This document shows positions 41,531-60,302 of a stretch of 64,000 nt of DNA, piece after piece. Source of the stretch: Alphaproteobacteria bacterium (GTDB taxonomy: Bacteria > Pseudomonadota > Alphaproteobacteria > UBA828). The notes beneath the pieces are model-generated. The model made no database searches, was not told the origin of the DNA, and saw only the letters and a list, made by a program, of their open reading frames with translations. The position numbers and the translations under genes are program-made. Where the stretch lies: assembly GCA_963422645.2 (NCBI GenBank), contig CAXXVO010000011.1:1-64000 (forward strand), in the 5' to 3' direction. The stretch's first letter is position 1, and every line of letters starts with the position of its first letter.

Positions 41531-42931
41531 TCAGCACTCCGGCATGTTCACGGCGAGGCCGCCGAGGCTGGTTTCCTTGAACTTGGCGCTCATTTCCCGC
41601 CCGGTCTCGCGCATTGCCTCGATGCAGTTGTCGAGCGGCATGAAGTGGGTGCCGTCGCCCCTGAGCGCGAGCGAGGCGGCGGCGACGGCCTTGGTCGCGC
41701 CGATGCCGTTGCGCTCGATGCACGGCACCTGGACGAGGCCGGCGACGGGGTCGCAGGTCATGCCGAGATGGTGCTCGAGCGCGATCTCGGCCGCGTTTTC
41801 CACCTGAGCCGGCGTGCCGCCGAGCACTGCGCAGAGACCGGCGGCGGCCATGGCGGCGGCGGAGCCGACCTCAGCCTGGCAGCCGGCATCGGCGCCGGAG
41901 ATCGACGCGTTGGCCTTGATCAGGCCGCCGATCGCCGCGGCGGTGAGCAGGAATTCCCCGATCCGCTCCGTCTCGGCGCCAAAGCAATGGTCGAGGTAGT
42001 AGCGCAGCACGGCCGGGATCACGCCGGCGGCGCCGTTGGTGGGCGCGGTGACCACCTTGCCTCCGCCGGCGTTTTCTTCGTTGACCGCCATGGCGTAGAC
42101 GGTGAGCCAGTCGGAATAGACGTGCGGCTGGGCGCTGTTGGAGCCCTGCTCATCACAGAGCTGTTCGAAGAGCGCACCCGCCCGCCGCTTCACGCGCAGC
42201 CCGCCGGGGAGCTCGCCCTGGCCTGAGATCCCGCGATCGATGCAGGCGTCCATGGCACCCCAGAGCGCCGCGAGCCCGGCATCGACCTCGTCATCGGAGC
42301 GTGTGGCGCGCTCGTTCGCCAGCATCATCTCGGCGATGGAGTTGCCGCTTTCTTCCGCCATCCGCAGCATGGCCGCGGCGTTCTTGAAGGGGAAGGGGAC
42401 CTGCCCGTCCTGATCGTCTCCGGCGTCCTCCGCCCCCCGGGCGAGCTCTTCGGCCGTCACGATGAAGCCGCCGCCGATCGAATAGTAAATCTGGCTCAGA
42501 TAGCCCACGCCCTCGGCGTTGACTGCATGGAATTCCATGCCGTTGGGATGGCCCGGGAGCGGCGGGCCATAGTCGAAGAAGATGTGGTGGTGCGGATCGA
42601 ACACGATCGTGATGCCGCCGAGCGAAGGCAGAGTCTTGCTCCCCCTGAGGACCGCCACGTCAGCCTCGGCCTTGTCGATATCGATATCGCCGGCGCGGTG
42701 GCCGAGCAATCCGTACACGATCGCCCGATCCGTCGCATGGCCCCTGCCGGTGAAGGCCAGTGAGCCATGGAGCGAGACGTGAATTCGCAGCCATGAGTCG
42801 GGCGGCGGGTCCGTTGCGACCCGCTCCGCCAGCAGCGCGAGGAATGACTCGGCAGCCGCCATCGGCCCCATGGTGTGGGACGAGGACGGGCCGATCCCGA
42901 CCTTGAAGATTTCGAAGACGCTCAGGTGCAT
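41531..42931 (-). CDS. sdaA: Fe-S L-serine ammonia-lyase
   Basis: [27 protein letters not shown] and VPCIERN motifs. Confidence 0.96.
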
Positions 42932-45226
42932 CGTGACGATGCTCGCCGATTGGCAGGGTCCCGCTGGCTTGCAGGCGACCTTCTACCGTCAAGTGGCGAC
43001 GGCGGCGACCCGTTGCAAGACACCCATGCATGCCGCAGTCGCATGGGTGGGCCACCCACTCCTCATAGCGATCGGATCCCATAGTAATGTAATTGTCGGA
43101 TACGCGGGTGTCGGCGAAGATGCGGCGAGACCGGCGCCCGAGGGAGTCGAGACTGGCCCCTTCAGGCGCGCCGGCGCGAAGCAAGCGTCGCGCCGCGGCC
43201 AACACGGCACGCGGGCGGGACGCAGGAGGAGAGCCATGCGGCGCATCGGAGTGGATGTCGGCGGTACCTTCACGGACCTGATTCTGGTCGACGAGACAGC
43301 AGGCGCGATCACGGTCGACAAGGTGCCGTCCACGCCTGACGATCCGGCGCGGGCGGTGATGACGGGCGTGGACGCGCTCTGCGGCAAGGCCGGTGTCAGC
43401 CTCGAGGCGGTGGACCTGCTGCTGCACGGCACCACGGTGGCGACCAACATTGCCATCGAGCACAAGGGCGCCGAGGTCGGCCTGATCACGACCGAAGGCT
43501 TCCGCGACATTCTCCACATCGCGCGCCACAAGAAGCCGCACAACTTCTCGCTACAGCAGGAGCTGCCGTGGCAGTCGCGGCCGCTGGTCAGGCGCCGCCA
43601 CCGGCTCACGGTCAAGGAGCGGGTCACCGCACCCAGGGGAGAGATCGTCGTGCCGCTGGACGAGGCGGAGGTGCGCGAGCGCGCACGGGCGCTGCGTGAG
43701 GCCGGCGTCGACGCCATCGCCGTCTGCCTGCTGCACGCCTACCTCAATCCGGCGCACGAGCAGCGCATCAAGCAGATCCTGCAGGAGGAGTGTCCCGACG
43801 CCTATCTCTCCGTCTCCAGCGAAGTGCTGCCGCTCTATCGCGAGTTCGAGCGCTTCTCGACCACCTGCCTCAATGCCTATGTCGGCCCCCGCGTCGGGAG
43901 CTACGTCGGGCGGCTGGAGTCCGGCTTGAAGGACGCGGGGCTCGCGCGCGGCGTCCGCCTCATGCAGTCCTCAGGCGGCATGACGACCGCAGACAGCGCA
44001 GTCGGCGGCCCGGTCAACCTGATGATGTCCGGGCCGGTGGCAGGGCTGATCGGCGGCATCTGGGCCGGCAAGATGGCCGGCTACGACAATGTGTTCACGC
44101 TCGACATCGGCGGCACTTCGGCAGACATCGGCGTGGCCGCCGACGGCGCGCTCAGGATGCGCCACCTGCTCGACACCAAGGTCGGGGACTATCAGGCGAT
44201 GATCCCGATGGTCGATATCGACACCATCGGCGCGGGCGGCGGCTCCATCGCCTATGTCGACGAGGGCGGCATCTACCGCGTGGGCCCGCAATCGGCCGGT
44301 GCCGATCCAGGCCCTGCCTGCTACGGACGGGGCGGAGCCGAGCCCACCTCCACCGATGCGCAGGTGGCGCTCGGCCGGCTCCGCACCGACCGCGGCCTGG
44401 TCGGCGGCAGCATGACCCTGCACGCGGACCTTGCCCAGGACGCGCTGCAAGGGCTCGCGGGCACGCTCGACATGTCGTTGGAGGAGACCGCGCTCGGCGC
44501 GCTCCAGATCCAGAAGTTCAGCATGGTGCAGGCCATCGAGCTCAACAGCGTGCGGCGCGGCTACGACCCGCGCGACTTCACCCTCGTCGCCGCGGGCGGC
44601 GCCGGCCCGCTCTTTGCCTGCGACATCGCGGTGGAGCTGGAGATCCCGAGGGTCCTGGTGCCGCCGCATCCCGGCATCCTCTCGGCCACCGGCCTGCTGG
44701 CCACCGACATGCAGCACGAGTTCGTCACCACCGAGCGCCAGCCGCTGGCGACGCTCGACCGCAACCATCTGGCCGAGCGCTTCGAGGAACTGACGAGCCA
44801 GGCGCTGGGGGGGCTGGAGGCCGACGGCGTACCCGAGGGCGACCGCCTGATCCGCCGCCTCGCCGACTGCCGCTATGCCGGCCAGGGCTACGAGGTCCGC
44901 TTCGACGCGCCGACGGGCGAGATCGACGACGCCTGGATCGAGGAGCTGGCCGAGCGCTTCCATCGCGCCCACGACGCCGAATACGGCCATCGCTTCGATG
45001 CCCCCGTCGAGATCATCAACATCCGCGCGGTCGCCATCGGCCGCATCCCGGACCTCGACTGGCCGGAGATCGAAAGCGGCGACGGCACGGCAACGCCACT
45101 CTTGCGCCAGCCGGTGGTGTTCGAGGTGGAAGGCAAGGGCGAGACCCACGAGACGCCCTTCTACGACCGCGCCGCGCTTTGCGCCGGGGACCGGATCGCG
45201 GGCCCCGCGATCGTCGAGCAATACGA

Positions 45227-45859
45227 TCAGACTTCCTGACCTCTGCTGATTTTAGGTGACACGAGCCGCGCGGATTCCGAGGCCCCGTCGATGTCGTAGA
45301 CTATGCGCAGACGGGTGCCGGGGAAGACCGTTTCGGTGGCGTTCAGGTCGCTCAGAACCGCATCGATCCAACGGTCGCAGGCGTCGTTTGCGAGGCCAAG
45401 AATGTGGACCCGCAGGAGGCCATTGCCAGGATCCGGCAGGATGTCGGCATCGGCGGTGAGCAGCGCTTGAAGCAGTTTCCGGGGATGGGGCTTGTGGCCC
45501 TGCGCCTGCATGACGGGAAGCATCATGCGGGTTTCGGCGCGGTAGGCGATCATCCGGATGACGTCGAGGAGGAGGCGCTCGCGCGCGGGCAAGGCATCGA
45601 GCTGCTCGGCTTCGTCGAGGTCGCCGGCCCGGCAGTGCTTGGGCGTCTCCCTGCGGCTGGCCCTGACGATGTCGCGGACATCCTGGAGGTCCCTGACTTC
45701 CCTCCTGAGTTCCGCCGTCGGCTGCTTCTTCCGGGCCGTGTCGGCGATGCGGTTGCGCAGGCGGCCAAGCTGGCGGTCGAGGCGATGGATTGCCTTGTCA
45801 TAGGCCCGCCGCAGCGGGTTGACGACCATGGCGGCGGGATCGAGAGGCTCGAGCTCGTG
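45227..45859 (-). pseudogene. C-terminal remnant of the outer element's putative transposase (unclassified/ISNCY-like)
   Basis: The ORF ...VVNP...MIAYRAET...LNATETVFPGT...GQEV* runs into the TIR, and its stop codon is completed by the TSD base. The 5' part is absent. Confidence 0.7.
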
Positions 45860-45909
45860 TGTAGCCGGCCAGAAGTCTTTGCGAATCGCGGCCAGAAGTC
45901 TTTGCGAAT
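45860..45909. repeat. TG-initiated end with two 21-bp direct repeats (putative transposase-binding sites)
   Basis: TGTAGC followed by CGGCCAGAAGTCTTTGCGAAT at 45866-45886 and 45889-45909, exactly where the outer transposase breaks off. Confidence 0.7.
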
Positions 45910-46063
45910 GGCCTGGAAAACGTAACTACCCAGGTACCCCAATCCTGAGTTGAGGACGGTGATTATGGCGGCGGCCGCGGCCTGGTTCTGCCACCGCGAT
46001 TGGTTCTTGACCTCATAGAGTTGCGGGACTATGGACTGCTCTCTCGCGTGACGGGAGCGGTCC

Positions 46064-46729
46064 ATGGGGTATTTCGGCTCGAAGGCGACAGCAGGTCTGT
46101 GCCAAGCGCTGATTGCGCTGATGCCGCCGCACTCCGTCTACATCGAAAGCCACCTTGGGGGCGGGGCGCTGATGAAGCGCAAGCCGCCGGCCGTGCGTTC
46201 GATCGGCATCGACCGCGATGCGCAGGCGCTCGAGGCCTTCGTCTGCGACTACCCGGTCGATCTGGTTCACGGCTGTGCCCATGACTTCCTGGCCTCGTTC
46301 CCGTTCCTGGGCCCGGAGCTGGTTTACAGCGATCCGCCCTATCTGCACGCGACCCGCCGCTCGGCGCAGCGCTACCGCTTCGAGTACGAGGAGGCCGGCC
46401 ACGTCGCGCTTCTCGCGCTGCTCAAGGCTCTGCCCTGCCAGGTCATGATCTCGGGCCATCCGTCGGCGCTCTATGACGAGGTGCTGGCGGGATGGCGCCG
46501 GCTGGCGCTGCAGGTCACGACCCAGGGTCTGGTGCGAACCGAGGTCGTCTGGTTCAACTACGCCCCCGACCGGATGCATTGGGCCAGCCACGCAGGCCGG
46601 AACTTCACCGACCGCCAGCGCATCAAGCGCAAGGCAGCCAACTGGGGCCGGCGCTACCAGGCCTTGCCGCCGGGCGAACGCCTCGCCGTGCTCGCCGCCA
46701 TGATGGCCGTCGAGGCCGAAGACACGTGA
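46064..46729 (+). CDS. Dam/D12-class DNA adenine methyltransferase
   Basis: Motif X YFGSK, motif I-like ESHLGGGA, catalytic DPPY and EVVWFNY. Confidence 0.85.
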   Translation: MGYFGSKATAGLCQALIALMPPHSVYIESHLGGGALMKRKPPAVRSIGIDRDAQALEAFVCDYPVDLVHGCAHDFLASFPFLGPELVYSDPPYLHATRRSAQRYRFEYEEAGHVALLALLKALPCQVMISGHPSALYDEVLAGWRRLALQVTTQGLVRTEVVWFNYAPDRMHWASHAGRNFTDRQRIKRKAANWGRRYQALPPGERLAVLAAMMAVEAEDT

Positions 46730-48264
46730 CGGTGTCGCACTGGCACGAAGACCTCGCCGCCCGTAACGAGGCCTTCTGCTGCCTGAAGGAGCTTCTCGAG
46801 CCATCATCCCTCGCAACCACTGTCGTCGTTGCCGTCCGGGAATGGGGGCAGGGGCTGCTGCGATCAGCCACCGCGCTCGCCCGGGAAAATGCCGCACTCG
46901 AGCAGGAGAACGCGGCCCTGCGCGAGCGCATCGCCGAACTCGAGCGCAGCGCGGCCCTCAACAGCACCACAAGCAGCAAGCCCCCCGCCAGCGACGGGCT
47001 CAAGAAGAAAAGCGGAGCCCAGAGGCGCACCCAAAGCCAGCGCGGAAAGTCCGGCGGGCCCAGTGGCGGCCAGCCCGGCCACAAGGGAACCACCCTCGCG
47101 CGGAGCGACAGCCCGGACCGTGTCGTCGATCACCACCCCTCCACCTGTTCCGGCTGTGGCGTCGAGCTCTCGGACGCCGACCGGCAAGGCGCGCCCGCCT
47201 GTCGGCAGGTCTTCGACGTACCCGAGCCGCAGCCTCTCGAGGTCACCGAACACCGCGCCCATCGCTGCCTCTGCGGCGCATGCGGCACGCTGACACGAGC
47301 CGCCTTCCCGCCGGGCGTCACCGCCCCGGTCCAGTACGGCCCTCGCATCACCGCTTGGGTGAGTTACCTGCTGTACGCCCAGTTCGTGCCCGAGAAGCGT
47401 CTGGCCGAACTCATGAGCGACATCTTCGCGGTGTCCATCTCCACTGCCACGATCGCCGCCATGGGCCGGCGCACAGCGCAGCGCTTCGAGGGCTTCCTCG
47501 ACCATGTCGCCGATCTGATCCGCACGCAGGCGCCGGTCAAGCACCTCGACGAGACCGGCCTGCGTATCGCCGCCCGTACCCGCTGGCTCCATGTGCTGTG
47601 CACCCCGTTGCTCACCGTCCTGCGCATCGGCGAGGGACGCGGCGATGTCGAAAAGAACCTGAAAGGCATCCTCGTCCACGACGACTTCGCCCCCTACTTC
47701 ACCATCAAGGGCGTCCGCCACGGCGCCTGCAACGCACATCACCTGCGCGAACTCCAGGCCCTGATCGACATCGAGAAGGAGGAATGGGCGGCGAGCATGC
47801 ACCGCCTGCTTCAGCGCGCGCGCAGGGCCGCCCGCTTCGCCCGTGAGAAAGACCGTCAAGTCCCCGCCTCCCTGGTGGCCCGCATCTCAAGGGCATGGGA
47901 CCGTATCCTCGAAGAAGCCATCGCCTTCCATGAGGCCCAACCGCCGCTCCAGATCGCAAAGCGAGGGCGAAAGAAACGCCGCATCGGCCACAACCTCGCG
48001 CGCCGCCTTCAAAAGCATAAGGAGGGCTGCCTGCGCTTCCTCACCGACCTGCGCACGCCGTTCACGAATAACGAGGCGGAGCGTGACATCCGTATGAACA
48101 AAGTGCATGAGAAGATCTCAGGCGGCTTCCGCTCCCTGCAAGGCGCCTGCAACTTCGCCGGAATGCGCAGCGTCATCGTCACCGCTCGAAAGCAAGGCTG
48201 GAACATCCTGCAAATCCTGGCGCACCCGGAACCGATGCAGCTGATCCCTATACTGCGCTCCTGA
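46726..48264 (+). CDS. tnpC: IS66 family transposase
   Basis: SSKPPASD, CxxC, HLDETG, CNAHHLREL and TNNEAERDIR motifs. GTG start overlaps the methylase TGA. Confidence 0.93.
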   Translation: MTVSHWHEDLAARNEAFCCLKELLEPSSLATTVVVAVREWGQGLLRSATALARENAALEQENAALRERIAELERSAALNSTTSSKPPASDGLKKKSGAQRRTQSQRGKSGGPSGGQPGHKGTTLARSDSPDRVVDHHPSTCSGCGVELSDADRQGAPACRQVFDVPEPQPLEVTEHRAHRCLCGACGTLTRAAFPPGVTAPVQYGPRITAWVSYLLYAQFVPEKRLAELMSDIFAVSISTATIAAMGRRTAQRFEGFLDHVADLIRTQAPVKHLDETGLRIAARTRWLHVLCTPLLTVLRIGEGRGDVEKNLKGILVHDDFAPYFTIKGVRHGACNAHHLRELQALIDIEKEEWAASMHRLLQRARRAARFAREKDRQVPASLVARISRAWDRILEEAIAFHEAQPPLQIAKRGRKKRRIGHNLARRLQKHKEGCLRFLTDLRTPFTNNEAERDIRMNKVHEKISGGFRSLQGACNFAGMRSVIVTARKQGWNILQILAHPEPMQLIPILRS

Positions 48265-48544
48265 ACTTCTCCGGCTCATCCTGAGTATCGCTGTCCTCTC
48301 ATCTTGTTCGCGACGCGGCGTTCATCATCCTCTCGCGCTCAAGAGAGTAGGCACCCCCGCGGCGTGGGGGCGTTGACGCAAAAGGAACTGGCTTGTTCCA
48401 TAAGAGAGAGGGGGTACCTGGGCAGTTACTGGAAAACAGGCTGATTTTCGGGGCTGATTCGGGCTGGAAAAACGGCCTCTGCATCGGCCATGCACGGGCC
48501 GTTCAGGGGCGCGGAATTCGGTGTGCACGGCCCCTGCAAGGGTT

Positions 48545-49087
48545 CTATTCCGCCTTCTCCTCCGCCTCGGGCGCGGGGGGCTGGGCGGGCCCGGCTTCGG
48601 GCGGGCGCCAGTGTCTGTCGTCGGCTGCGTCGAAGCGCTCGAGCGCGCCCGCGTCCATGGTTTCGATGCGCTTGCGGAGCGCGCGGCAGAGCCGGCGCAG
48701 GCGGTCGCGTTCGGCGTCCTGCTCCTCGGTGGCGGCGCCGCGCAGCCGCCGTCTGGCCTCGTGCTCCCAGCTCCTCGCCCCGTAGGCCTTCCGGATGCGG
48801 CGGGTTGCCTCCCGGTCGACCCCTTGCGCCCTTTCTTGCCGGAGGTCTTCGGCGGCGGCGCGCTCGCCCGCTTCGGCGATCATGGCCCATGCCGGCTTGG
48901 GGCTGGCGTCCGGGTCGGGGCCGTAGTCCGGCAGGCCGGGGATCGGGTTCCAGCCGTAGGCCTTCCATGTCGCCTCGTCGAACATCGTGTCGATGCCGCC
49001 GGGGAAGGAGCCCGGCAGGAAGCCGTGGGGCGGACGCAGGCCGTCGTGCGCCATGAGCCGGCGGATCGCGTCCTGGATGTCGATCAC
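48545..49087 (-). CDS. Hypothetical protein, possibly a phage tail-fibre chaperone-like protein
   Basis: Lies 4 bp downstream of the oxygenase. PKPAW plus helical region plus terminal DDRHW resembles small phage tail-associated proteins (recollection only). Confidence 0.5.
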   Translation of the reverse strand: MIDIQDAIRRLMAHDGLRPPHGFLPGSFPGGIDTMFDEATWKAYGWNPIPGLPDYGPDPDASPKPAWAMIAEAGERAAAEDLRQERAQGVDREATRRIRKAYGARSWEHEARRRLRGAATEEQDAERDRLRRLCRALRKRIETMDAGALERFDAADDRHWRPPEAGPAQPPAPEAEEKAE

Positions 49088-49091
49088 CGTG

Positions 49092-49715
49092 TCATCCTCC
49101 GTCGGGCCGGGCGAGGGACGAGAACCTCTCTCCGTTCGACTGCGCCCACCATCGCACGAGCGAGCGGCGGATGCCGGCGGTGGCGGGTGCGACCCTGTGC
49201 CACCAGTCTGCGGGGAAGAGGACGAGCGATCCCGGCGGCGGGTCGATCCGTACGGGGCGGCGTTTCCGGCCCGGGTCCTGGAAGACCATGTCGCCGCCGG
49301 CTGCGGCGCGTTCGACGATGAGGCTTGCGGAGACGGTCCGGTCGAGGGTGTCGGGAACTCCCCGCCCTGCGTACTGGTCGACGTGCCAGAGGCAGGCCTG
49401 TCCTGCGAAGTAACAGTTGCAGACGGCGGGCGAGGGCGTGTCCGCGCGTGCGTTCAGCACCTCGCGGGCGTAGTTGCGGGCGAGGGCGTCCAGGGCGTCG
49501 GTGCAGTCTGCCGGGAGCATCCCGTCGGGCAGCCATGCCTCGTAGCAGTCGTCCGCGCCGGGGCCCCGGCGCGCGAGCGCGAGCCCGTTGACGGCTCGCT
49601 CGACCTCGGCCATTGCTCGAGGGCCGATGGCTGCGCGGACGACGCGAATGGGGGGGGTGGAACCCTCTCCGGGCTCGACCGGGGTTGATTCGCGGGGGTC
49701 TCTCACGCCGGGCAC
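49092..49715 (-). CDS. 2OG-Fe(II) oxygenase (prolyl-4-hydroxylase-like)
   Basis: Y..G....WHVD (HxD), GGDMVF, PGSLVLFP, HRV (distal His) and G.RRSLV (2OG-binding Arg). AGGAG RBS upstream. Confidence 0.85.
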   Translation of the reverse strand: MPGVRDPRESTPVEPGEGSTPPIRVVRAAIGPRAMAEVERAVNGLALARRGPGADDCYEAWLPDGMLPADCTDALDALARNYAREVLNARADTPSPAVCNCYFAGQACLWHVDQYAGRGVPDTLDRTVSASLIVERAAAGGDMVFQDPGRKRRPVRIDPPPGSLVLFPADWWHRVAPATAGIRRSLVRWWAQSNGERFSSLARPDGG

Positions 49716-49865
49716 CGCCGTCGAATCTCCTAGGACGCCCGATGGGTGTAGGTGACCGACCAGGGGCCTCGTGATCCTGCGTCCATCGCCAGGGTCGTGA
49801 ATCTAGCGCGGACGTAGACCGCGCCGGAGAACGGCGCCTGCCATACTATATAGTGAATATTGGAT

Positions 49866-51190
49866 CACTAGTGTCCCAAGAAAATTGGAGAGACCCTTGT
49901 TAAGTTATTGACAAAGCGCGATTAAGCGCCATTTCGCGCTGTTACCGACTTGAAGTGGCCGGCGCGAGTGCCGAGGCTGGGTTCTCCGATCCAGAGGGAG
50001 CCCGGTCATGTCCACGGGACAACTTGTCTTCTCGCAGGTGATGGACCATCTGCCCCTGCATTCGTTCCGCAAATGCGTCGAACAATACGATGGTAATCGG
50101 TACGTCAAATCGTTCTCATGCCTGAGCCAGTTTTTCTGCATGGCCTTCGCACAATTGTCCTATCGAGAAAGCCTGCGCGACATCGAGATTTGTCTGCGTG
50201 CCCAGAATAACAAGCTTTATCACATGGGAATTCGGGGACCGGTCTCGCGCAACACTTTAGCGAACGCCAACGCGCAACGCGACTGGCGCATCTATGCCGA
50301 GTTCGCCCAGGAACTGATCGACATCGCACGCCCACTCTATGCCGGCGAGGACCTCGGTCTTCAACTCGACAATACCGTGTACGCTCTCGACGCGTCGACC
50401 ATCGATCTGTGCCTGTCGGTCTTCCCCTGGGCTCTGTTCCGCTCAACCAAGTCGGCCGTCAAGCTTCACACTCTCCTTGACTTGCAGGGCAGTATCCCGG
50501 CCTTCATTCACATCTCCGACGGCAAGCTCGGCGATGTGAATGTCCTGGACATCATCATTCCGGAGCCCGGCGCCTTCTACATCATGGATCGCGCCTACCT
50601 CGACTTCAAGCGCCTCAACGCCCTGGATATGGCGGGAAGCTTCTTCGTCATCCGCGCAAAGGCCAACACGAAATACCGGCGCCAATACTCCCGTACCGTC
50701 GACAAAGACGCCGGACTGCGTTGCGATCAAACCATCGTCCTGACCGGAAAGGCGAGCAAAAGCCGCTACCCAAAGCCGCTCCGCAGGGTCGGCTACAAGG
50801 ATACTGAAACCAACAAGACCTTCAACTTCCTGACCAACAACTTCGCTGTTCCGCCCCTCACCGTCGCAGAGCTCTACCGCTATCGCTGGCAGGTCGAACT
50901 CTTCTTCAAATGGATCAAGCAAAACCTCCGCATCAAGGCCTTCTTCGGCACCTCCGAAAATGCCGTAAAGACCCAAATCTGGATCGCAGTCTCCGTCTAC
51001 GTCCTGATTGCCATCATCAAGAAGAGGTTGAGACTCGATGCCAGCCTCTACACAATTCTACAGACCCTGAGCCTCACCCTGTTCGAAAAAATCCCGCTCA
51101 ATGCGCTACTTACGCATAAGGCACTCCCGGTGGGCCAGAGCCGCGAAGATAAGCAACTGATTCTATTGTAGTTTTAATGGGACACTAGTG
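49866..51190 (+). mobile_element. IS4-family element
   Basis: TIR CACTAGTGTCCCA. 9-bp TSD ATATTGGAT at 49857-49865 and 51191-51199. Confidence 0.95.
50008..51171 (+). CDS. IS4 family transposase (DUF4372-like N-terminus)
   Basis: LDASTI, MDRAY and [15 protein letters not shown] (YREK) motifs. Confidence 0.95.
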
Positions 51191-51346
51191 ATATTGGATA
51201 GGTATTTGTCGAAATGCCGCGTCGGCGACGAGAATAGCCTGCTCGAGGCGACCTCGAAGGTGACGTAGTGCTTGCCGGAGGTCCCATCCACGCGCAGGCC
51301 GGTATTAGTCGGCCTTCTCCGGTTGAACGTGGGCGCCGGGATCACG

Positions 51347-51516
<170 letters not shown>

Positions 51517-51840
51517 CTGGCCCGCTCCTGCCGGATCGGTCAGCCCCCAGACATAGTTCAACGTCCCGGAGCCGTGCCATTCGCCGCTATTATAGCCAAG
51601 CGAGAGCACCCCTCGGCTGAAGCTTGCCCGGCCAAGCGTGGGCGACCAGTTTGCATCGGCGCCGGTGACACCCTGCAGCTGCTTCCGCGCTGTGCTCAGC
51701 GCGGCCACCCGCACCGATACCTGTTGTTAAGCGTGGAAAAGTGACCCCCTATTGGGGGTGATCGGCGTCCAAAATTGACCCCCTTGGATTTGTGTCCATG
51801 AACACACCTCGTCGTTTGGACGGACGGGGTGGTGGGGGAG

Positions 51841-53355
51841 ATGCTGGTTGTGGAAACGATCGCGAAGATCCGTCGGGATCATCTGGTGAAGGGCGTTCCG
51901 ATCAAGAAGCTCGCCCGGGATTTGAGGGTTTCCAAGAACACGATACGCAAGGTGGTGCGGGGCGATGCGACCTCGCACAGCTACGAGCGCAAGATCCAGC
52001 CGATGCCGAAGCTTGGGCTGTGGGTGGAGGAGCTTGAGCGCCAGCTGAAGGCCAACGAGAAGAAGGCACGCAAGGATCGGCTGTCTCTTCTGCGGATTCA
52101 TGAAGACCTTGTGTCGCTGGGCTACAAGGGCGGCTATGACGCGGTTCGCCGCTATGCCAGGGCCTGGCGGCGCCGGTGGCGGCTGTTGTCGCCGGCGCAG
52201 GCCTATGTGCCGCTGATCTTCGATCCCGGCGAGGCCTACCAGTTCGACTGGAGCCACGAGTACGCGCGTCTGTCGGGCGCGACGACCAGGGTGAAGGCGG
52301 CGCACATGCGGCTGTGCCACAGCCGGATGTATCTGGTCCAGATCTTTCCCCGCGAGAGCCAGGAGATGGTCTTCGAGGCGCACGAGCGTGCCTTCCGCTT
52401 CTTCGGCGGGGTCTGCCGGCGGGGCATCTACGACAACATGAAGACGGCGGTGAGCACGATCTTCGTGGGCAAGAAGCGGGACTACAACCGCCGCTTCCAG
52501 GAGCTGTGCTCGCACCATCTGGTGGAGCCTGTGGCGTGCACGCCAGGGGCTGGCTGGGAGAAGGGGCAGGTCGAGAAGCAGGTGGGTGACCTTCGCGGCC
52601 GCCTGTTCGTGCCCATCCCGCGGGGCCGCTCCTACGCCGAGATCAACGAGTGGCTGATGGATCGGTGCATCGAGGACGCCAAGAAGCATCCGCATCCGAC
52701 AATCCCGGGCAAGACGGTGTGGCAGGTGTTCGAGGAGGAGCAGCCCTTCCTGATGGCGTATCGCGGCCCCTTCGACGGCTTCCATGCCAGCGAGGTGTCG
52801 GTCTCGAAGACCTGTCTGGTGCGCTTCGACAACAACCAGTACAGCGTCGCGGCCCGCGCCGTCGGCCGGCCGGTGGACGTGCGGGCCTATGCCGATCGGA
52901 TCGTCATCCGCCAGGACGGCGAGACCGTTGCCGAGCACCCCCGCAGCTTCGGGCGCGGCCGGTTCGTCTACGATCCGTGGCATTACGTGCCGATCCTGAC
53001 GCGGAAGCCCGGCGCGCTACGCAATGGCGCGCCCTTCAAGGACTGGCAGTTGCCCAACGCGCTCGGCCGCCTGCGAACCCGGCTCGCGGGCCACGACGAC
53101 GGCGACCGGCAGTTCGTCAAGGTGCTCGCGGCGGTGCTGGAGGACGGACTGGAGGCGGTTGAGGCGGCCTGTGCCGAGACGCTCGACTGCGGTGCCTGCA
53201 GCGCCGACGTGGTGCTCAACATCCTCGCCCGGCAGCGCCAGCCGGCACCGCCGGCAATCATCCCGACGCCCGAGGGCCTGCAGCTTCGCCACAAGCCGGT
53301 AGCCGACTGTCAGCGCTACGACAGCCTGAGGGAGGCCGGTCATGGAGCGTCATGA
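51841..53355 (+). CDS. istA: IS21 transposase
   Basis: N-terminal HTH; [12 protein letters not shown] and WEKGQVE DDE motifs. Confidence 0.95.
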
Positions 53356-54070
53356 TGTGCTGGAGATGATGACCCAGCTGAAGCTCGCAGGTATGCGCGC
53401 CGCTTACGACGACATCCTTGCCGACGGGCTCAAGCGCCGCCATCCGGTGCAACAGATCATCGGTACGCTGCTGCAGGTCGAGATCGCCGACAAGAGGGCC
53501 CGCTCGATCAAGTACCAGATGGCCTCCGCCAAGCTGCCGACGGTCAAGGAGCTGGCCGACTTCGACTTCGCCGCCTCGCCGGTCAACGAGCCCCTGATCC
53601 AGGAGCTCGCCGGCGGCGGCTTCCTCGAGGGCAAACGCAACATCGTGCTGGTCGGCGGCACCGGTACCGGCAAGACCCATCTCGCCGTCGCCATCGCGCG
53701 GTCCTGCATCCGCAAGGGCGCGCGCGGCCGGTGCTACAACGTCGTCGACCTGGTCAACCTCCTCGAGGCCGAGCTTCGCGCCGGACGCCAGGGCCGCACT
53801 GCAGACCAGCTCGTCCGCCGCGACTTCGTCATCCTCGACGAGCTCGGCTACCTGCCCTTCGCCCAGGCCGGTGGGCAGCTGCTCTTCCATCTGATGAGCC
53901 GGCTCTACGAGCGCACCTCGATCGTCATCACCACAAACCTCGCCTTCGGCGAATGGCCATCCGTCTTCGGCGACCCCAAGATGACCACAGCGCTGCTCGA
54001 TCGCCTCACCCATCATTGCGAGATCATCGAGACCGGCAACGAGAGCTGGCGCTTCAAGAACCGCTCCTGA
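53342..54070 (+). CDS. istB: IS21 helper ATPase
   Basis: [16 protein letters not shown] and ALLDRLTHH motifs. Confidence 0.96.
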
Positions 54071-56315
54071 CCCGCCGCCGGCCTCCCTTGCGGCCCGGTT
54101 GCCCCGGTGGGCCAACAGGGACCCCCCACGCGGCTTCGCTCCGCGTAGCGCAGGGCGCCACACGAAGCCGCGCGGGTCCCCCCTATTGGCTACCGGGACA
54201 ACCTCCGCCGTGCCACTCAGGGGGGTCAATTTTGCACGCCGATCGGGGGTCAGTATTGAAAGCCGATTGACACTCGGGCGCGACACCCAGCGAAAAACCG
54301 CCTGAAACAACCGAAATGTATCAGAATTCAAGGAGTTCCCGGCACGCTGCCCAGAACAGCCAGCATCACGAGGTCAGGAAGTCTGACGATACGACCGTGG
54401 TGATCCCGCCCCGCTGCGAGGCGGCGATAGACGCGCGCGGCAACATCGTGATCGACTGCGCAAGCGCCGTGGCACAGCACGGGCACGACCTGGCTGCGCC
54501 GATCATGCAGCGCGTCATCGGCGGCGCCTTTACCGCCATCGCGCAGGAGATGGCGGGCGTGCTCTACCGCATGTCCTATTCCTCGATCATCCGCGAATCG
54601 GAAGACCTCGGCGCCGGCATCTTCGACCGCGACGGCCTCATGCTGGCGGAATCGGAATCGACGCCGATGTTCATGGGCGCGATGCCGCGCATCGTCCAGA
54701 ACGTGATCGAGCTGCTCGACGGCGACATCCACGAAGGCGACATCATCTTCCACAACGACCCCTACTACGGGGCCACGCATTCGCCGGACTGCGCCATCGT
54801 GATGCCGATCTACCGCCGGGACGAGCTGGTCGGGTTCGCGGGCGCGTCGGCCCACCTGCTCGATATCGGCGGCGCCTATCCGGGGCTCAACATCGACGCG
54901 GTCGACATCTACGCCGAAGGCAACATCTACCGGGCCGTGAAGCTCGCGATAAAAGGTGTGCGGCAGGATGGGCTCTGGAAGCACATTCTGGAGAACATGC
55001 GCACGCCGACGCCCAACGAGGGCGACATCCAGGCGATGATCGCAGCCTGCGAGCTCGCCAAGCGACGCTATATCGATCTCATCGAGCGCTACGGGCAGGG
55101 TGCCGTCGACGCGGCCGGCCAGCACTGGATGAGCTATTCGGAGCAGATGCTCAGGCGCGAGATCGCCAAGATTCCCGACGGCGAATACGAGACCGGGCTC
55201 GGCTATCTCGACGACGACGGGGTCAACCGGGGCCGCAAGCTGCCGGTCAAGGTCAAGGTGATCATTGAAGGCGACGAGATCACCTACGACCTCACCGGCT
55301 CCAGCGACGAGGTGCCGACCGGCTACAACGTTCCCTTCGAGGGCACGACCTGCTCAGCCATGTCCTTCATCACGCGGATGATCTTCCTCGATACCGTGAC
55401 GCACCCGGTCTACGTGCCGCAGAACGAGGGTATGACCCGGCCGATCAACGTGATCGCGCCCAAGGGCTCGATCTTCAATCCCAATTTCCCGCGCTCCTGC
55501 TTCGCCCGCTTCTGCCAGATGCAGCGCGCCGTCGACCTGGTGCTCCGCGCGCTCGCCCCGGTGGTGCCCGAGAAGGTGACCGCGGGCAACTCGGCGCACC
55601 TGCACTTCATCTCCTACTCCGGCTTCGACACGGATCAGGGCGAGTACTGGGTCTATCTGGAGGTCGACGAAGGCTCCTACGGCGGCCGCCCGGATCGTGA
55701 CGGCATGGACGCCGTGGATTGCCTCATCGCCAACACCCGCAACAACCCGATCGAGGAGCTGGAATGGCGCTTCCCGATCCGCACCGAGCGCTACGAGCTG
55801 CGCAACGAGTCCTGTGCCGCCGGCAAGTGGCGGGGCGGCATCGGCATGGTGCGGGTCAACAAGATGCTGGTCGACACCATCGTCACCTGCGAGGGGGAGC
55901 GGCACGAATCCGACGAGCCTTGGGGAGTCTTCGGCGGCATGCCGGGGCTGAACGCCTCCGTGGTGCGAAACCGTGGCGGGGCGGACGAAGAGGCGTGGCC
56001 GTCGAAGTTCACCGGCTTCCGGCTCGCCGCAGGCGACAGCATCGAGATCACGGTGCCCAATTCGGGCGGCTACGGCGATCCGCTGGAGCGCGACCCTGCG
56101 CTCGTGCTCGCGGACGTGTTCGACGGCTTCACCACCATCGAGCGCGCGCGGAACGACTACGGCGTCGTGATCGAACCGGCACCGATGCGGCTCGATGAGG
56201 AGGCGACCCGCCGGCTACGCGCCGAACGCTCCGGCGCAGCACGCCAACCGGCGCCGGCCTGAGGAAAGGACCGAGGGGCTTCCCCGACAAGGCCGAGGCT
56301 ATCCCGCCTGCGCCC

Positions 56316-58787
56316 CAATGGCATTCATTTGGCGCGAAGATTGTTCCGGGGTTTTTTGGTGGTGTCGTAACGAGTTGATTTCTTGTGTGGATTGTCGGTC
56401 TCGGCGTTTCCCGCACGAGGGGGATTGACCGGCGGCGTGTGCTTTGGCACACTGTGGCTGTCCCCCTGTCAGTGGAGCCGGCCCATGGACCCCCGCATCA
56501 CCGCGCTGAAGTCGACGACCTTTTTCGGCAGACGTCTGACCCGCCGGCAGATTGCCGACATCCAGGAGACGGTGGCGCTGTTTCCGGCGATCAGCCGCAA
56601 CGAGCTCGGGCACACGATCTGCGAGCATTTGAACTGGCGCGCGCCGAGCGGGCGGAACCGTGTCGCGGTCTGCCTGCGGATGCTGGAGGAGTTGGAGCGG
56701 CTGGGCATCCTGACCCTGCCGGCGCGGGACGAGGCGCAGGTGCGGGGGCCGCAGGAGGCGATGGCCCGGAGCGAGCGGACGGCGCCGGCCGCGGCGATCG
56801 CGGAGGACCTGGCCGCGCTGATGCCGCTGCGCCTGTCGATTGCGGCGGGCAAGGAGGAGGGCGGGCTGTGGAACGAGTTCGTCGCGCGCCACCACTATCT
56901 CGGGCTGCATCGTCTGGTCGGCGCGCATCTGCGCTATTTTCTCCTGGACCGCCACGGGCGGCCTCTGGGCTGCCTTCTGTTTGCCCGGGCGTCGCTGAGC
57001 TGCCCTGCCGCGACGAGTGGATCGGGTGGCCGGCGGAAGGCTTCCGCAAGCACCTCGATCTGGTCGTGGGTCACACGCGTTTCCTGATCTTTCCCTGGGT
57101 CCGGGTCGACAACCTGGCGTCGAAAGCGCTGTCGATGGCGCTGCGCCAGCTGCCCGGCGACTGGGAGGCGCGCTTCGGAGCGCGCCCGGTTCTGGTGGAG
57201 ACCTTCGTGGACCCCAGCCTCTTCGACGGCGCCTGCTACCGCGCGGCCAACTGGCGCTGTCTCGGCGAGACCGGGGGCGGCAAGGGCAAGACCCGCAAAA
57301 GCGTCTACGTCTACCCGCTGACGCCGGACTTCCGCTCGATCCTGCTCGAAGGCCCGCGGCCGGCGCGGCGCGGGAACAGGACACGGCCGGCAGCGCTGGC
57401 GCCGGACGATCCCTTCGTGGCGCTGTGGCAGGACCTGATCGGCGCACTGGCGGCGGTGGCCGCCGATCACGACCGGGTGTGGCAGAGCCGCCGGCGGGTC
57501 CTCGACACCCTTCTCGTCATGCTCTTCATCTTCCGGCTGGCGTTCTCGAACGGCCGCGCGGGCTACGCCACGACGCTGGCCGGGCTGTGGGAGCAGTGCC
57601 GGGTCCTGGGCGTCGCACTGCCGCAGCCGGCGCCGGTCTCGGCCTCGGCGATGTGCATGGCGCGGGCCAAGGTCGACGAGGCGGTGTTCAAGACGCTGCA
57701 CGCCGAGATCCTCAAGCGCGCCGACGGCCCGGCCTGGAAGGGCCACCGCGTGTTCGCGGTCGACGGCTCCAAGCTCAACCTGCCGCGGCCGCTGCTCAAG
57801 GCCGGCTACCGCACGCCCTCCGAGGCGGCCCACTACCCGCAGGGCCTGCTGAGTTGCCTCTACCGGCTGCACGCGAACATCCCGGTGGACTTCGACCTGG
57901 TCGCGCACGGCGACGAAAGAAGGGCCGCCCTCGCCCACCTCAAGGCGCTCTCGGCCAACGACATCGTGGTCTATGACCGCGGCTACTACTCTTGGGAGAT
58001 GCTGCACGCCCATGTCGCCCGCGGCCTGCACCCCGTGTTCCGGATCAAGAAGAAGGCAGGCGCCGCCCTCGACGCCTTCATCGCCGACGGCCGCACGGAC
58101 GCGCCGATCACCGTCGCTCCCGGAAAGGACACCCTGAGAAAGCTGCGCCGCAAGACGCCGCACGTCGACGCCACCCCGCTGCGCCTGCGACTGGTCCGCT
58201 ACCGCATCGGCAGCACGGTCTTCATCCTCGCCACCACCCTCCTCGACCCCAAGGCCTGGAGCGTCGCGGAACTGGCCGAGCTCTATCACGCGCGCTGGGG
58301 AATCGAGGAACTCTACAAGACCTCGAAACAGGCCATGGCCGTCGAGGCCTTCCACAGCCAGACCGAGCGCGGCGTCCGCCAGGAGCTCTTCGCCCACTTC
58401 AACCTCATCGCCATGACCCGGCTCTTCACCAACCGCAGCAACGCAAGCCTCGACGCCGAGCGCCCTGCCGACGGCAAGCCGGCGATGAAAGCCAACTTCA
58501 GCAACGGCCTCGCCACCGTCGCGCGCAACCTCGAAGCGCTGCTGCTGCGCCATACGGCGATGGTCGCCGAAACCCTCAGCCATGTCCTCTCCTGCATCAA
58601 CCAGGCGCGTCAGCGCCCGCGCCCCGGCCGGTCCTGCGAACGCAGGTCGCGCAAACCCCGCGGCAAGTGGGCACGCGCAAAGCGGGCCGTCGCCTGAACA
58701 CCTGAACGACAGAAACGCACGCAACCGACAGCGCAAGAACACGACTCCTTAAGTGAACAGTCGAAAACCGCTAAGTGAATGCCATTG
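56316..58787 (+). mobile_element. IS4-family element with a DUF4338-fused transposase
   Basis: TIR CAATGGCATTCA(T/C)TT. 10-bp TSD GCCTGCGCCC at 56306-56315 and 58788-58797. Confidence 0.93.
56485..58697 (+). pseudogene. DUF4338 (DruA/Mom-like GNAT) plus IS4 DDE transposase fusion, frameshifted near 57000
   Basis: N-terminal part has HHYLG, RDEWIGW, RFLIFPWV, NLAS, ETFVD and GACYRAANW. C-terminal part has AVDGS, YDRGY and YHARWGIEELYK. One missing base near 57000 separates the frames. Confidence 0.85.
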
Positions 58788-58853
58788 GCCTGCGCCCGGC
58801 GTGTGATAAGAGAGCAAAACGCAAGCTGATCGCACGATGTAGGGAGAGGACAC

Positions 58854-60302
58854 ATGATGGGCGGTATTTCCGAAGCTTACGGCTCACTCGACGGCATGGG
58901 GCTCGCCGCCCTGGTCAGGAAGGGAGAGGTCTCGCCGAGCGAGGTGCTCGAAGAGGCGATAAGCCGCGCCGAGGCGGTCAATGGAACGCTCAACTTCCTC
59001 ACCTACAAGGCTTACGAGGAAGGCCGCAAGATGGCGGCCGACCCGGCGCTCCCCAATGGCCCTTTCAAGGGCGTGCCCTGGCTCGTGAAGGAGATCGCGA
59101 CCGATTGGACTGGGCTGCAGAACACCAACGCCTGCCCCTACTTCAAGGACATCGTCTCGACCAGCGACAGCGAGCAGGTGAAGCGCGTCAAGAAGGCGGG
59201 CTTCGTGCTGCTCGGCAAGTCAAACTCGCCGGAGGCCGGCTGGGCGCTCTCCACCGAGCCCAAGATGTACGGCCCGACCCTCAATCCCTGGGACACGTCG
59301 CGCACGCCCGGCGGCTCCTCCGGCGGCTCGGCGGCGGCGGTCGCGGCCCGCGTGCTGCCGCTGGCCGAGGCGAGCGACGGCGGCGGCTCCATCCGCACGC
59401 CCGCGTGCCATTCCGGCCTGGTCGGCCTCAAGCCCGCGCGCGGGCGCATCACGATGGCGCCGGGCGCGGACTTCTGGTACGGCGGCGTCACCTTCCTCTG
59501 CGTCTCGCGCTCGGTCCGCGACACGGCCGCTTTCTTCGATACCGTGGGTGGGCCGCTCCCCGGCGATCCCTACTACGCAGTGATGCCGGAGACCCCCTAC
59601 CTCGACGAGATTGGCAAAGACCCAGGCTCGCTCTCGATCGCCATGGTCACCGCCTCGCCCGAGGGCTGCACTCCGGTGGACGCAGAAGTGCGCGAGGGGA
59701 TCGAGAACACCGGGAAGCTGCTGGAGAGCCTCGGCCATCGGGTCACGCCGGAGGCCGTGCCCTACGACTTCTGGCCGCTCTACGACGCCTACATGCGGAT
59801 CGGCGCCGTGGTCACGGCGGCCTGGTTCGATGGCTCCGCCGAACTCGTCGGCCACACCCTCAGGCAGGACGAGACCGAGAACCTCTATTGGACAACCATC
59901 GAGAGGGGTCGCAGCACCTCGGCGGTCGATCACCACAACGATGTCGCTCAACTGCGCGCCATGTGCCGCGACATCGTGGGCCGCATGGCCGCCTACGACG
60001 CATGGCTCTGCCCGGTGGTGCCGATGGTGGCGCGCAAGATCGGCTACTACGACATGTCCCGCGATTGCGACGACTACAACGCGAACATCATGGGGCCGGA
60101 TTGCGCCTTCACCCAGCCTTTCAACGCGACCGGCTCTCCCGGCATCTCGTTGCCGCTACACTGGACGGCCGACGGCGTGCCGGTGGGCTCCCAGCTGGTC
60201 GGGCGCGACCTCGACGAGGCACTGCTCTTCCGCCTCGCCGGCCAGCTCGAACAGGCGCAGCCCTGGATTGATCGCATTCCGCCGGTCAACGCGGGGGCGT
60301 GA
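58854..60302 (+). CDS. Amidase-signature family hydrolase
   Basis: Catalytic Lys (VKEI), PGGSSGGS and SDGGGSIR motifs. Confidence 0.93.
   Translation: MMGGISEAYGSLDGMGLAALVRKGEVSPSEVLEEAISRAEAVNGTLNFLTYKAYEEGRKMAADPALPNGPFKGVPWLVKEIATDWTGLQNTNACPYFKDIVSTSDSEQVKRVKKAGFVLLGKSNSPEAGWALSTEPKMYGPTLNPWDTSRTPGGSSGGSAAAVAARVLPLAEASDGGGSIRTPACHSGLVGLKPARGRITMAPGADFWYGGVTFLCVSRSVRDTAAFFDTVGGPLPGDPYYAVMPETPYLDEIGKDPGSLSIAMVTASPEGCTPVDAEVREGIENTGKLLESLGHRVTPEAVPYDFWPLYDAYMRIGAVVTAAWFDGSAELVGHTLRQDETENLYWTTIERGRSTSAVDHHNDVAQLRAMCRDIVGRMAAYDAWLCPVVPMVARKIGYYDMSRDCDDYNANIMGPDCAFTQPFNATGSPGISLPLHWTADGVPVGSQLVGRDLDEALLFRLAGQLEQAQPWIDRIPPVNAGA

Follow-up and report, generated by a model that had tools for sequence, protein, structure and literature searches.

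The insertion sequence (IS) described here lies at 56316-58787 of a contig from an Alphaproteobacteria bacterium (CAXXVO010000011.1, positions 1 to 64,000; this whole stretch of 64,000 nucleotides is called the window below), and its IS4-type transposase is preceded by a module which is predicted to have the GNAT fold and whose closest structural relative is Mom, the DNA-hypermodifying enzyme of phage Mu. Insertion sequences are thought to encode little beyond their transposase. Here a domain that appears to be constrained like the catalytic core stands closest to a DNA-hypermodifying phage enzyme and rides on transposases of several unrelated families. Our conclusion is that module and Mom are sisters within the GNAT fold, the module being no member of the Mom family, and we regard the kinship itself as very probably real. 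As best explanation overall we tentatively propose that the GNAT module works on DNA in the context of transposition.

Architecture of the fusion protein

All protein work used an intact sister copy of the element (L004:1670-3883, protein P0003), to which the residue numbers refer. The features of the gene in the window are:

56316..58787, + strand, whole IS4-family insertion sequence, 2,472 bp, a defective copy, delimited by copy comparison
56485..56724, + strand, small helical domain, residues 1-80, with a predicted local distance difference test (pLDDT) of 86-95 in AlphaFold2
56821..57353, + strand, predicted GNAT-fold, Mom-like domain, residues 113-290 of the intact protein, split over two frames
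56890-56904, + strand, module motif HHYLG, first frame
56996..56998, + strand, lesion causing a -1 shift, three letters against four in 8 of 10 full-length copies
57006-57029, + strand, module motif CRDEWIGW, second frame
57075-57098, + strand, module motif TRFLIFPW, second frame
57111-57131, + strand, module motif NLASKAL, second frame
57198-57212, + strand, module motif ETFVD, second frame
57234-57254, + strand, module motif CYRAANW, second frame
57375..58697, + strand, DDE transposase of the IS4 type, residues ~298-737 plus stop (PF01609, NF033592)
57753-57770, + strand, transposase motif FAVDGS
57966-57986, + strand, transposase motif VVYDRGY

The transposase part matches DDE_Tnp_1 (PF01609) with an E-value of 5.5e-21 and the NCBIfam IS4 model NF033592 with 157.7 bits (cut-off 115), and it carries the motif Y-x2-R-x3-E-x6-K (YHARWGIEELYKTSK, 58284-58328), which around the catalytic glutamate is the signature of IS4. 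The DDE/YREK transposase named in a preliminary description of this DNA, made from the letters alone, is thereby corroborated. As an IS4 transposase from Robbsia without the N-terminal module aligns to residues 298-729 with 40.7% identity, the transposase proper begins at about residue 298, and some 300 residues stand ahead of it; the motifs listed there in the preliminary description are all present, and its length of about 280 residues was too short. Both nearest named relatives seen, the transposase of Robbsia andropogonis and ISPa1635 (about 30% identity), lack these roughly 300 N-terminal residues. None of the 725 plasmid records matching the protein covers at least 80% of it, and a search of plasmids for DNA nearly identical to the element found none.

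The intact module matches the Pfam family DruA/DUF4338 (PF14236), to which it had been assigned before, with 114.4 bits at a gathering cut-off of 27, and the two frames of the window copy score 30.1 bits (profile positions 21-111) and 70 bits (107-226) against the same family. This Pfam family comprises the helical domain and the GNAT-fold domain together.

Fold of the module and kinship with Mom

An AlphaFold2 model of residues 1-300, built on 53 sequences, has a mean pLDDT of 90.4; in it the helical domain (1-80) is joined by a linker of poor order to a domain (113-290) with strands and helices arranged in GNAT-like order. When the model was compared by VIA-align with 999 chains ranked by Foldseek, 732 of them reached Z>=8, and all 50 rows listed were acetyl- or acyltransferases or complexes holding one; a comparison with 48,161 representatives of the PDB, which is independent of Foldseek, gave 199 at Z>=8. 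On the basis of this model the module is assigned the GNAT fold. GNAT enzymes typically bind acyl-coenzyme A (CoA) through a loop of the form Q/R-x-x-G-x-G/A that connects strand 4 to helix 3. We looked for this motif and found the loop WVRVDNLAS at its place (PWV.V.NLAS in the family), with no glycine motif. The N-terminal domain gave a pLDDT of 84.3 when folded alone. A fold search with residues 1-105 against the 48,161 chains gave no chain at Z>=8 and weak matches (Z 4.5-5.7) including the winged-helix DNA binders Fur and MexR, which is suggestive of a possibly winged-helix-like domain. DUF4338 is called a GNAT domain in print (PMC10853773).

Within the GNAT fold Mom stands out. Foldseek ranked Mom (8bv8_B) first in the PDB (E 2.1e-5, 18% identity), with ordinary acetyltransferases coming after it and 118 further matches at E<=1e-3. 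VIA-align gave Mom a Z of 15.2 (root-mean-square deviation 3.3, 162 residues aligned) among the 999 chains, followed by 13.2 for the next chain and at most 12.6 for the rest, and among the 48,161 representatives it was again on top with 14.9 (161 aligned) against 12.4 for the next. The preliminary description had suggested such a comparison with Mom and GNAT folds, and it came out in favour of Mom. In a viral structure library a phage Mom was found at rank 3 (E 1e-7).

On the level of sequence, Mom is the sole Pfam family besides DruA that scores near significance for the module. An hhalign comparison of 34 DruA-domain with 34 Mom-family sequences gave P 0.0011 over 150 columns with a probability of 20%, and the control with reversed sequences P 0.25 over 21 columns; against a single Mom sequence the match was weak (E 0.041, 50 columns). 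A single-protein search of the PDB gave a chance match to a DARPin only (E 0.06).

According to a paper of 2026 on Mom (PMC13219725), this enzyme takes glycine from Gly-tRNA(Gly) and attaches it to N6 of adenine in double-stranded DNA, and its active site comprises H58, Y59, R111, S124, D149, R151 and Y159 (the Mu Mom reading frame used by us is numbered 10 lower than in that source). R111, S124 and R151 are described there as essential, while activity was greatly reduced in D149A and drastically reduced in H58A, Y59A and Y159A. The IS protein residues H137-Y138, S213, D243 and Y252 are placed by hhalign on H58-Y59, S124, D149 and Y159 of Mom, so that five of the seven proposed active-site residues are matched by conserved IS residues, and N256, W257 and G261 align with the conserved N, F and G of Mom further downstream. 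The stretch common to both can be written as ...SFAD/TFVD...G..Y.A.N[FW]..G. Among 244 domain rows drawn from both homologue searches (see below), H137 is kept in 243, Y138 in 189, S213 in 240, D243 in 204 and Y252 in 237, and the polar residues R176 (244), R199 (243) and E239 (241) are nearly invariant.

The module and Mom thus have in common the GNAT fold, in which Mom is the top structural match, the lack of the glycine-rich CoA loop (judged by sequence) and the aligned His-Tyr, Ser, Asp and Tyr that matter for Mom activity. They differ in that the IS module is fused to a transposase and Mom is free-standing, and in that the module possesses a conserved insert of its own, RD.WIGW between strands 3 and 4, as well as the N-terminal domain, carries a leucine at the equivalent of R151, scores below the Pfam cut-off for Mom and has no counterpart of the helix-turn-helix-like insertion of Mom, in place of which the DruA domain holds about 12-20 residues. 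The parallel with Mom had been drawn in the preliminary description from the motifs HY and G..Y.A.N[FW], which do occur in Mom, and it holds for fold and top match; it fails at the Pfam cut-off, the insertion and R151. As described in PMC7824862, Mom-family domains of jumbo phages are fused to domains of the restriction-endonuclease fold. Such fusions resemble the protein studied here in joining a Mom-type domain to a DNA-cleaving domain, whereas their partner is a phage restriction-type nuclease, the two being read as a modification-restriction pair, and here it is a DDE transposase. Our literature search turned up no paper linking DUF4338 to Mom or treating its fusion to transposases, and priority is uncertain; a search on the mechanism of DruA found nothing relevant.

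Spread and constraint of the module

The search for relatives of the fusion among 8,000 candidates gave 1,643 clusters at E<=1e-3, and all of the best 120 of these possess both Pfam domains, under the plain NCBI name 'IS4 family transposase'. With the N-terminal module alone 7,023 representatives were obtained at E<=1e-3. Out of the best 150 we picked 34 proteins by unusual length or domain position, not at random, and scanned them with Pfam. A transposase domain is present in 22 of the 34: ten have a Tn5/IS50-type transposase that keeps its own DNA-binding domain, seven DDE_Tnp_1, three an IS66 transposase, one an IS630-type and one an ISAzo13-type transposase. In the IS66 fusions the module lies at or toward the C-terminal side, and in the two full-length ones it forms the C-terminus. 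One further protein each joins the DruA domain to a nucleotide cyclase (adenylate/guanylate) and to MORN repeats (proteins P0146 and P0231), nine have the DruA domain alone and one gave no Pfam match. In the present genome the domain is also fused to an ISAs1 transposase. Fusions therefore carry IS4, IS50-like, IS66, IS630, ISAzo13 and ISAs1 transposases, and a module-less DDE relative exists in the Robbsia IS4 transposase. The supposedly stand-alone DUF4338 gene of a Thiodictyon plasmid turned out to be a transposase fusion split by IS91.

The GNAT domain shows a mean pairwise identity of 63% across 118 full-length fusions, against 62% for the DDE core and 40-42% for the linkers. Judged by these sequence identities, the module seems to be constrained as strongly as the DDE catalytic core.

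Several further observations concern the DruA family. Matches of the module in the viral structure library include several phage proteins of 500-700 residues described as 'endonuclease-like' or as homing endonucleases. The genome also possesses three long DruA-domain frames of about 1,040-1,160 codons each (C13:253028-256498, C6:339338-342655 and C8:580346-583471) with the match near the C-terminal end, that in C8 being weak and below the cut-off; in the C13 frame, the sole one scanned, no further family of Pfam or NCBIfam was matched. A shorter frame of this kind, with 593 codons, lies at C16:209195-210973, and the ISAs1 transposase fusion at C3:34776-36191.

Proposed function and alternatives

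Core-like selection, the retention of catalytic-type residues, the joining to unrelated transposases at either terminus and a DDE chemistry that is independent of the module together fit a working enzyme which serves transposition in general, and not the recognition of ends within a single family, and we consider it rather probable that the GNAT domain is catalytically active in this family. The kinship with Mom makes acyl transfer to a DNA base the likeliest activity, and the donor may be an aminoacyl-tRNA or another compound than acetyl-CoA, because the glycine motif for CoA is absent as in Mom. In the model that we propose, the GNAT domain would be an acyltransferase tethered to the transposase, would take its acyl group from an aminoacyl-tRNA or another non-acetyl-CoA compound and would acylate a base in the DNA held by the transposase, at the element ends or in the target. 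Such a mark would serve to control or protect transposition, comparable to the control of IS10 and IS50 by Dam methylation. That the substrate is DNA adenine is possible, and we would not yet count on it.

Several points weigh against this proposal. The module scores only 14.2 bits (E 0.034) against Pfam Mom (PF25680), below the family cut-off of 27.1, the sequence kinship is weak as judged by the hhalign probability of 20%, and a profile search of the PDB sequences with the module profile gave nothing at E<=10. The column of the essential R151 holds Arg or Lys in 189 of the 244 relatives and Leu in this element; Mom R111 falls into an alignment gap, with R199, 4-6 residues upstream on that strand, as a conceivable equivalent. 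The helix-turn-helix-like insertion of Mom (about 175-209) has no counterpart in the module, the hhalign alignment consisting mostly of gaps there, and in PMC13219725 this insertion is described as essential for activity; the authors also state there that the substrates of Mom are not predictable from its structure. Finally, copies with a broken GNAT domain have spread or persisted: the same frameshift is found at two loci with distinct duplications, and six further copies are split within the GNAT domain by a recombinase element. As such copies persist and spread, the module is therefore not needed in cis.

An active acyltransferase might also have a substrate other than DNA, such as tRNA, the transposase itself, a host protein or a small molecule, and could thereby tune the transposase or host physiology. 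GNAT substrates are diverse and hundreds of GNAT chains score Z 11-13 against the module, which moreover occurs joined to a nucleotide cyclase or to MORN repeats; PMC13219725 mentions GNAT toxins acting on charged tRNA by acetylation and states that structure does not reveal the substrate. However, Mom, which modifies DNA, exceeds all other GNAT proteins by 2-2.5 Z units and has the aligned catalytic residues in common with the module, the commonest partners of the module are DNA-handling enzymes, with a transposase domain in 22 of 34 proteins, and the small domain ahead of it weakly resembles DNA-binding winged helices, and we consider a substrate other than DNA unlikely. Slightly less likely still in our view is a pseudo-enzyme, that is a GNAT-shaped scaffold binding DNA, a host factor or a complex and performing no chemistry. 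The leucine at the essential R151 position, the missing aligned R111, the persistence of copies with a broken module and a related DDE transposase judged functional without it (the Robbsia IS) would fit such a scaffold; against it, catalytic-type polar residues (H137, R176, R199, S213, E239 and Y252) are nearly invariant in the 244 rows, and since the transposase of the Tn5-like fusions retains a DNA-binding domain of its own, this domain is not replaced by the module.

Since the module belongs to PF14236, a family named after DruA, it could also be captured phage-defence cargo from Druantia with a role in defence rather than transposition, and 23 of 34 stand-alone relatives weakly match the PADLOC DruA model (best E 5.6e-7). 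The element's own domain, in contrast, gave no PADLOC match, neither in the window's pair of frames (E<=0.1) nor as intact domain (E<=0.01). When Druantia was tested for by DruA models and DruB-E neighbours, no PADLOC match appeared and the neighbours were hydantoinase and amidase genes, with no Druantia partner genes near the element. The module is fused in frame to the transposase and does not lie beside it, and the fusion was seen in 120 of the 120 best relatives, which makes a defence cargo highly improbable. Compared with DruA of type I Druantia, the protein shares the Pfam family PF14236 (formerly DUF4338) and differs in being part of a transposase.

If the module of these transposases is active on DNA, as we tentatively propose, it would represent the first transposase-borne base-modifying activity, Mom-type chemistry would be known from a second case, and the function of DruA of Druantia could be approached from there. 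The type II Druantia system carries a methylase. In its most far-reaching form the idea would be that module-carrying transposases place a bulky mark, an acyl or amino-acid group, on adenines of the DNA on which they act, as an epigenetic switch or shield, and that DruA of type I Druantia is the DNA-marking counterpart of the type II methylase; we regard this full version as speculative and rather improbable. If true, insertion sequences of at least five IS families would own such a switch or shield. The preliminary description had already suggested a general strategy of self-modifying insertion sequences, of which the generality gains from the same DruA module being present on transposases of five IS families, and the self-modification is still conjecture.

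Copies of the element and the frameshift

The ends of the element are formed by the following features, none of which has a strand:

56306..56315, left target-site duplication, 10 bp, GCCTGCGCCC, also found at the right flank
56316..56334, left terminal inverted repeat, from the pair 56315-56334 / 58769-58788
58769..58787, right terminal inverted repeat, pairing with the left repeat
58788..58797, right target-site duplication, 10 bp, GCCTGCGCCC, repeating the left flank

The borders 56316 and 58787 were fixed by aligning copies, and the inverted ends (56315-56334 / 58769-58788) are imperfect, with 18 of 20 nucleotides paired (90% complementary). BLAST of the element found 36 matching pieces in its genome (5.9 Mb on 23 contigs), many of them fragments and ten of them full-length copies of 2,472-2,478 bp with 99.6-100% identity and identical termini. 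Nine of the ten have their own 10-bp target duplication, which exceeds chance by far, and the bounded element with inverted repeats and 10-bp duplication given in the preliminary description proved to be exact. The DDE_Tnp_1 core with YREK, short imperfect repeats, the 10-bp duplication and many copies are shared with other IS4-family elements; terminal repeats, a duplication and several copies with differing flanks, by which an IS4 element is recognized, were all found. It is virtually certain that this is an IS4 element and that the copy in the window is defective. The neighbours of this copy are a hydantoinase B gene (54316-56262), of which the 3' end faces it, and on the other side an amidase gene (58854-60302).

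The sole full-length copy without target duplication is C5:639223-641696. The last 13 letters of its left flank are identical to those of the left flank of copy C3:135105, which may be due to recombination between copies or to a preferred target.

In the window the gene starts with ATG at 56485, and this first frame, which carries HHYLG, ends after 200 residues with a stop at 57085-57087; the remainder of the gene is in the -1 frame and has its stop codon at 58695-58697. Six of the ten copies possess an intact open reading frame of 737 residues and one further copy a frame of 711 residues with a shortened tail. When the sister copies were compared near position 57000, as the preliminary description had advised, eight had four letters at the lesion, and the window copy and C15:366888 three. 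The latter copy shows the identical lesion and 200-residue frame and a different target duplication, while copy C3:135105 has a 2-nt insertion elsewhere within the same GNAT domain. Contigs of four public runs with three organism labels all show the four-letter form with intact frame, and one contig of run X1 spans the left junction of this very insertion with no difference. As six copies are uninterrupted and the public contigs intact, the frameshift is a defect of the window copy and no recoding, and the frameshifted frame described before is thus correct for this copy and not for the element. A programmed frameshift was considered and rejected, because six of ten copies have one continuous 737-residue frame and the lesion is common to two copies. 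That two copies assembled separately share one complex change speaks against an assembly error, for which the intact-only form of the public contigs is limited evidence, since such contigs drop minority variants. The window copy is dead and can be mobile only if intact copies supply transposase.

Six copies of the IS are split by an element of 2,818 bp (C10:178473-181290, C5:335247-338064, C6:280324-283141, C14:17828-20645 and others) whose product is a large serine recombinase of about 720 residues, and five of these six copies are about 99.3-99.6% identical to the window copy. The element sits at the identical place in all six, at IS positions 880-886 within the VLVETFVD codons of the GNAT domain, with GTGGAGA common to both junctions; the equivalent site in the window (57195-57201) is uninterrupted. 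It also adjoins diverged IS relatives at C6:342645 and C8:597539, and its end appears as a loose end in the public runs X1 and X2. From these junctions the recombinase element looks site-specific, with the conserved IS coding sequence as its apparent attachment site.

Neighbouring mobile DNA

An IS66 transposase is encoded at 46492-48264 (+ strand), and its start is overlapped by an open frame of 225 codons (46052-46726, + strand) with a DPPY motif. The preliminary description had read a methylase here, and what can be kept of it is this DPPY frame with a weak match to the Dam family (E 9.6e-5, 22 bits against a cut-off of 114.85) and none to any Pfam family; a Pfam scan of ten frames in 46000-49715 for a methyltransferase gave no match at E<=0.01, and PF01555 found no match on the window contig. 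Two adenine-modifying insertion sequences within 13 kb, as had been proposed, would be possible. Mobile DNA has piled up at 45227-54070, between the hydantoinase A gene (42870-45239) and the hydantoinase B gene (54316-56262), and comprises a Transposase_29 fragment, the IS66 element, a DUF4372+DDE_Tnp_1 transposase (50008-51171) and an rve/Mu-transposase-C protein (51829-53355). Among these insertion sequences lies an open reading frame of 207 residues (49092-49715, - strand) with a 2OG-Fe(II) oxygenase domain (E 3.7e-10).

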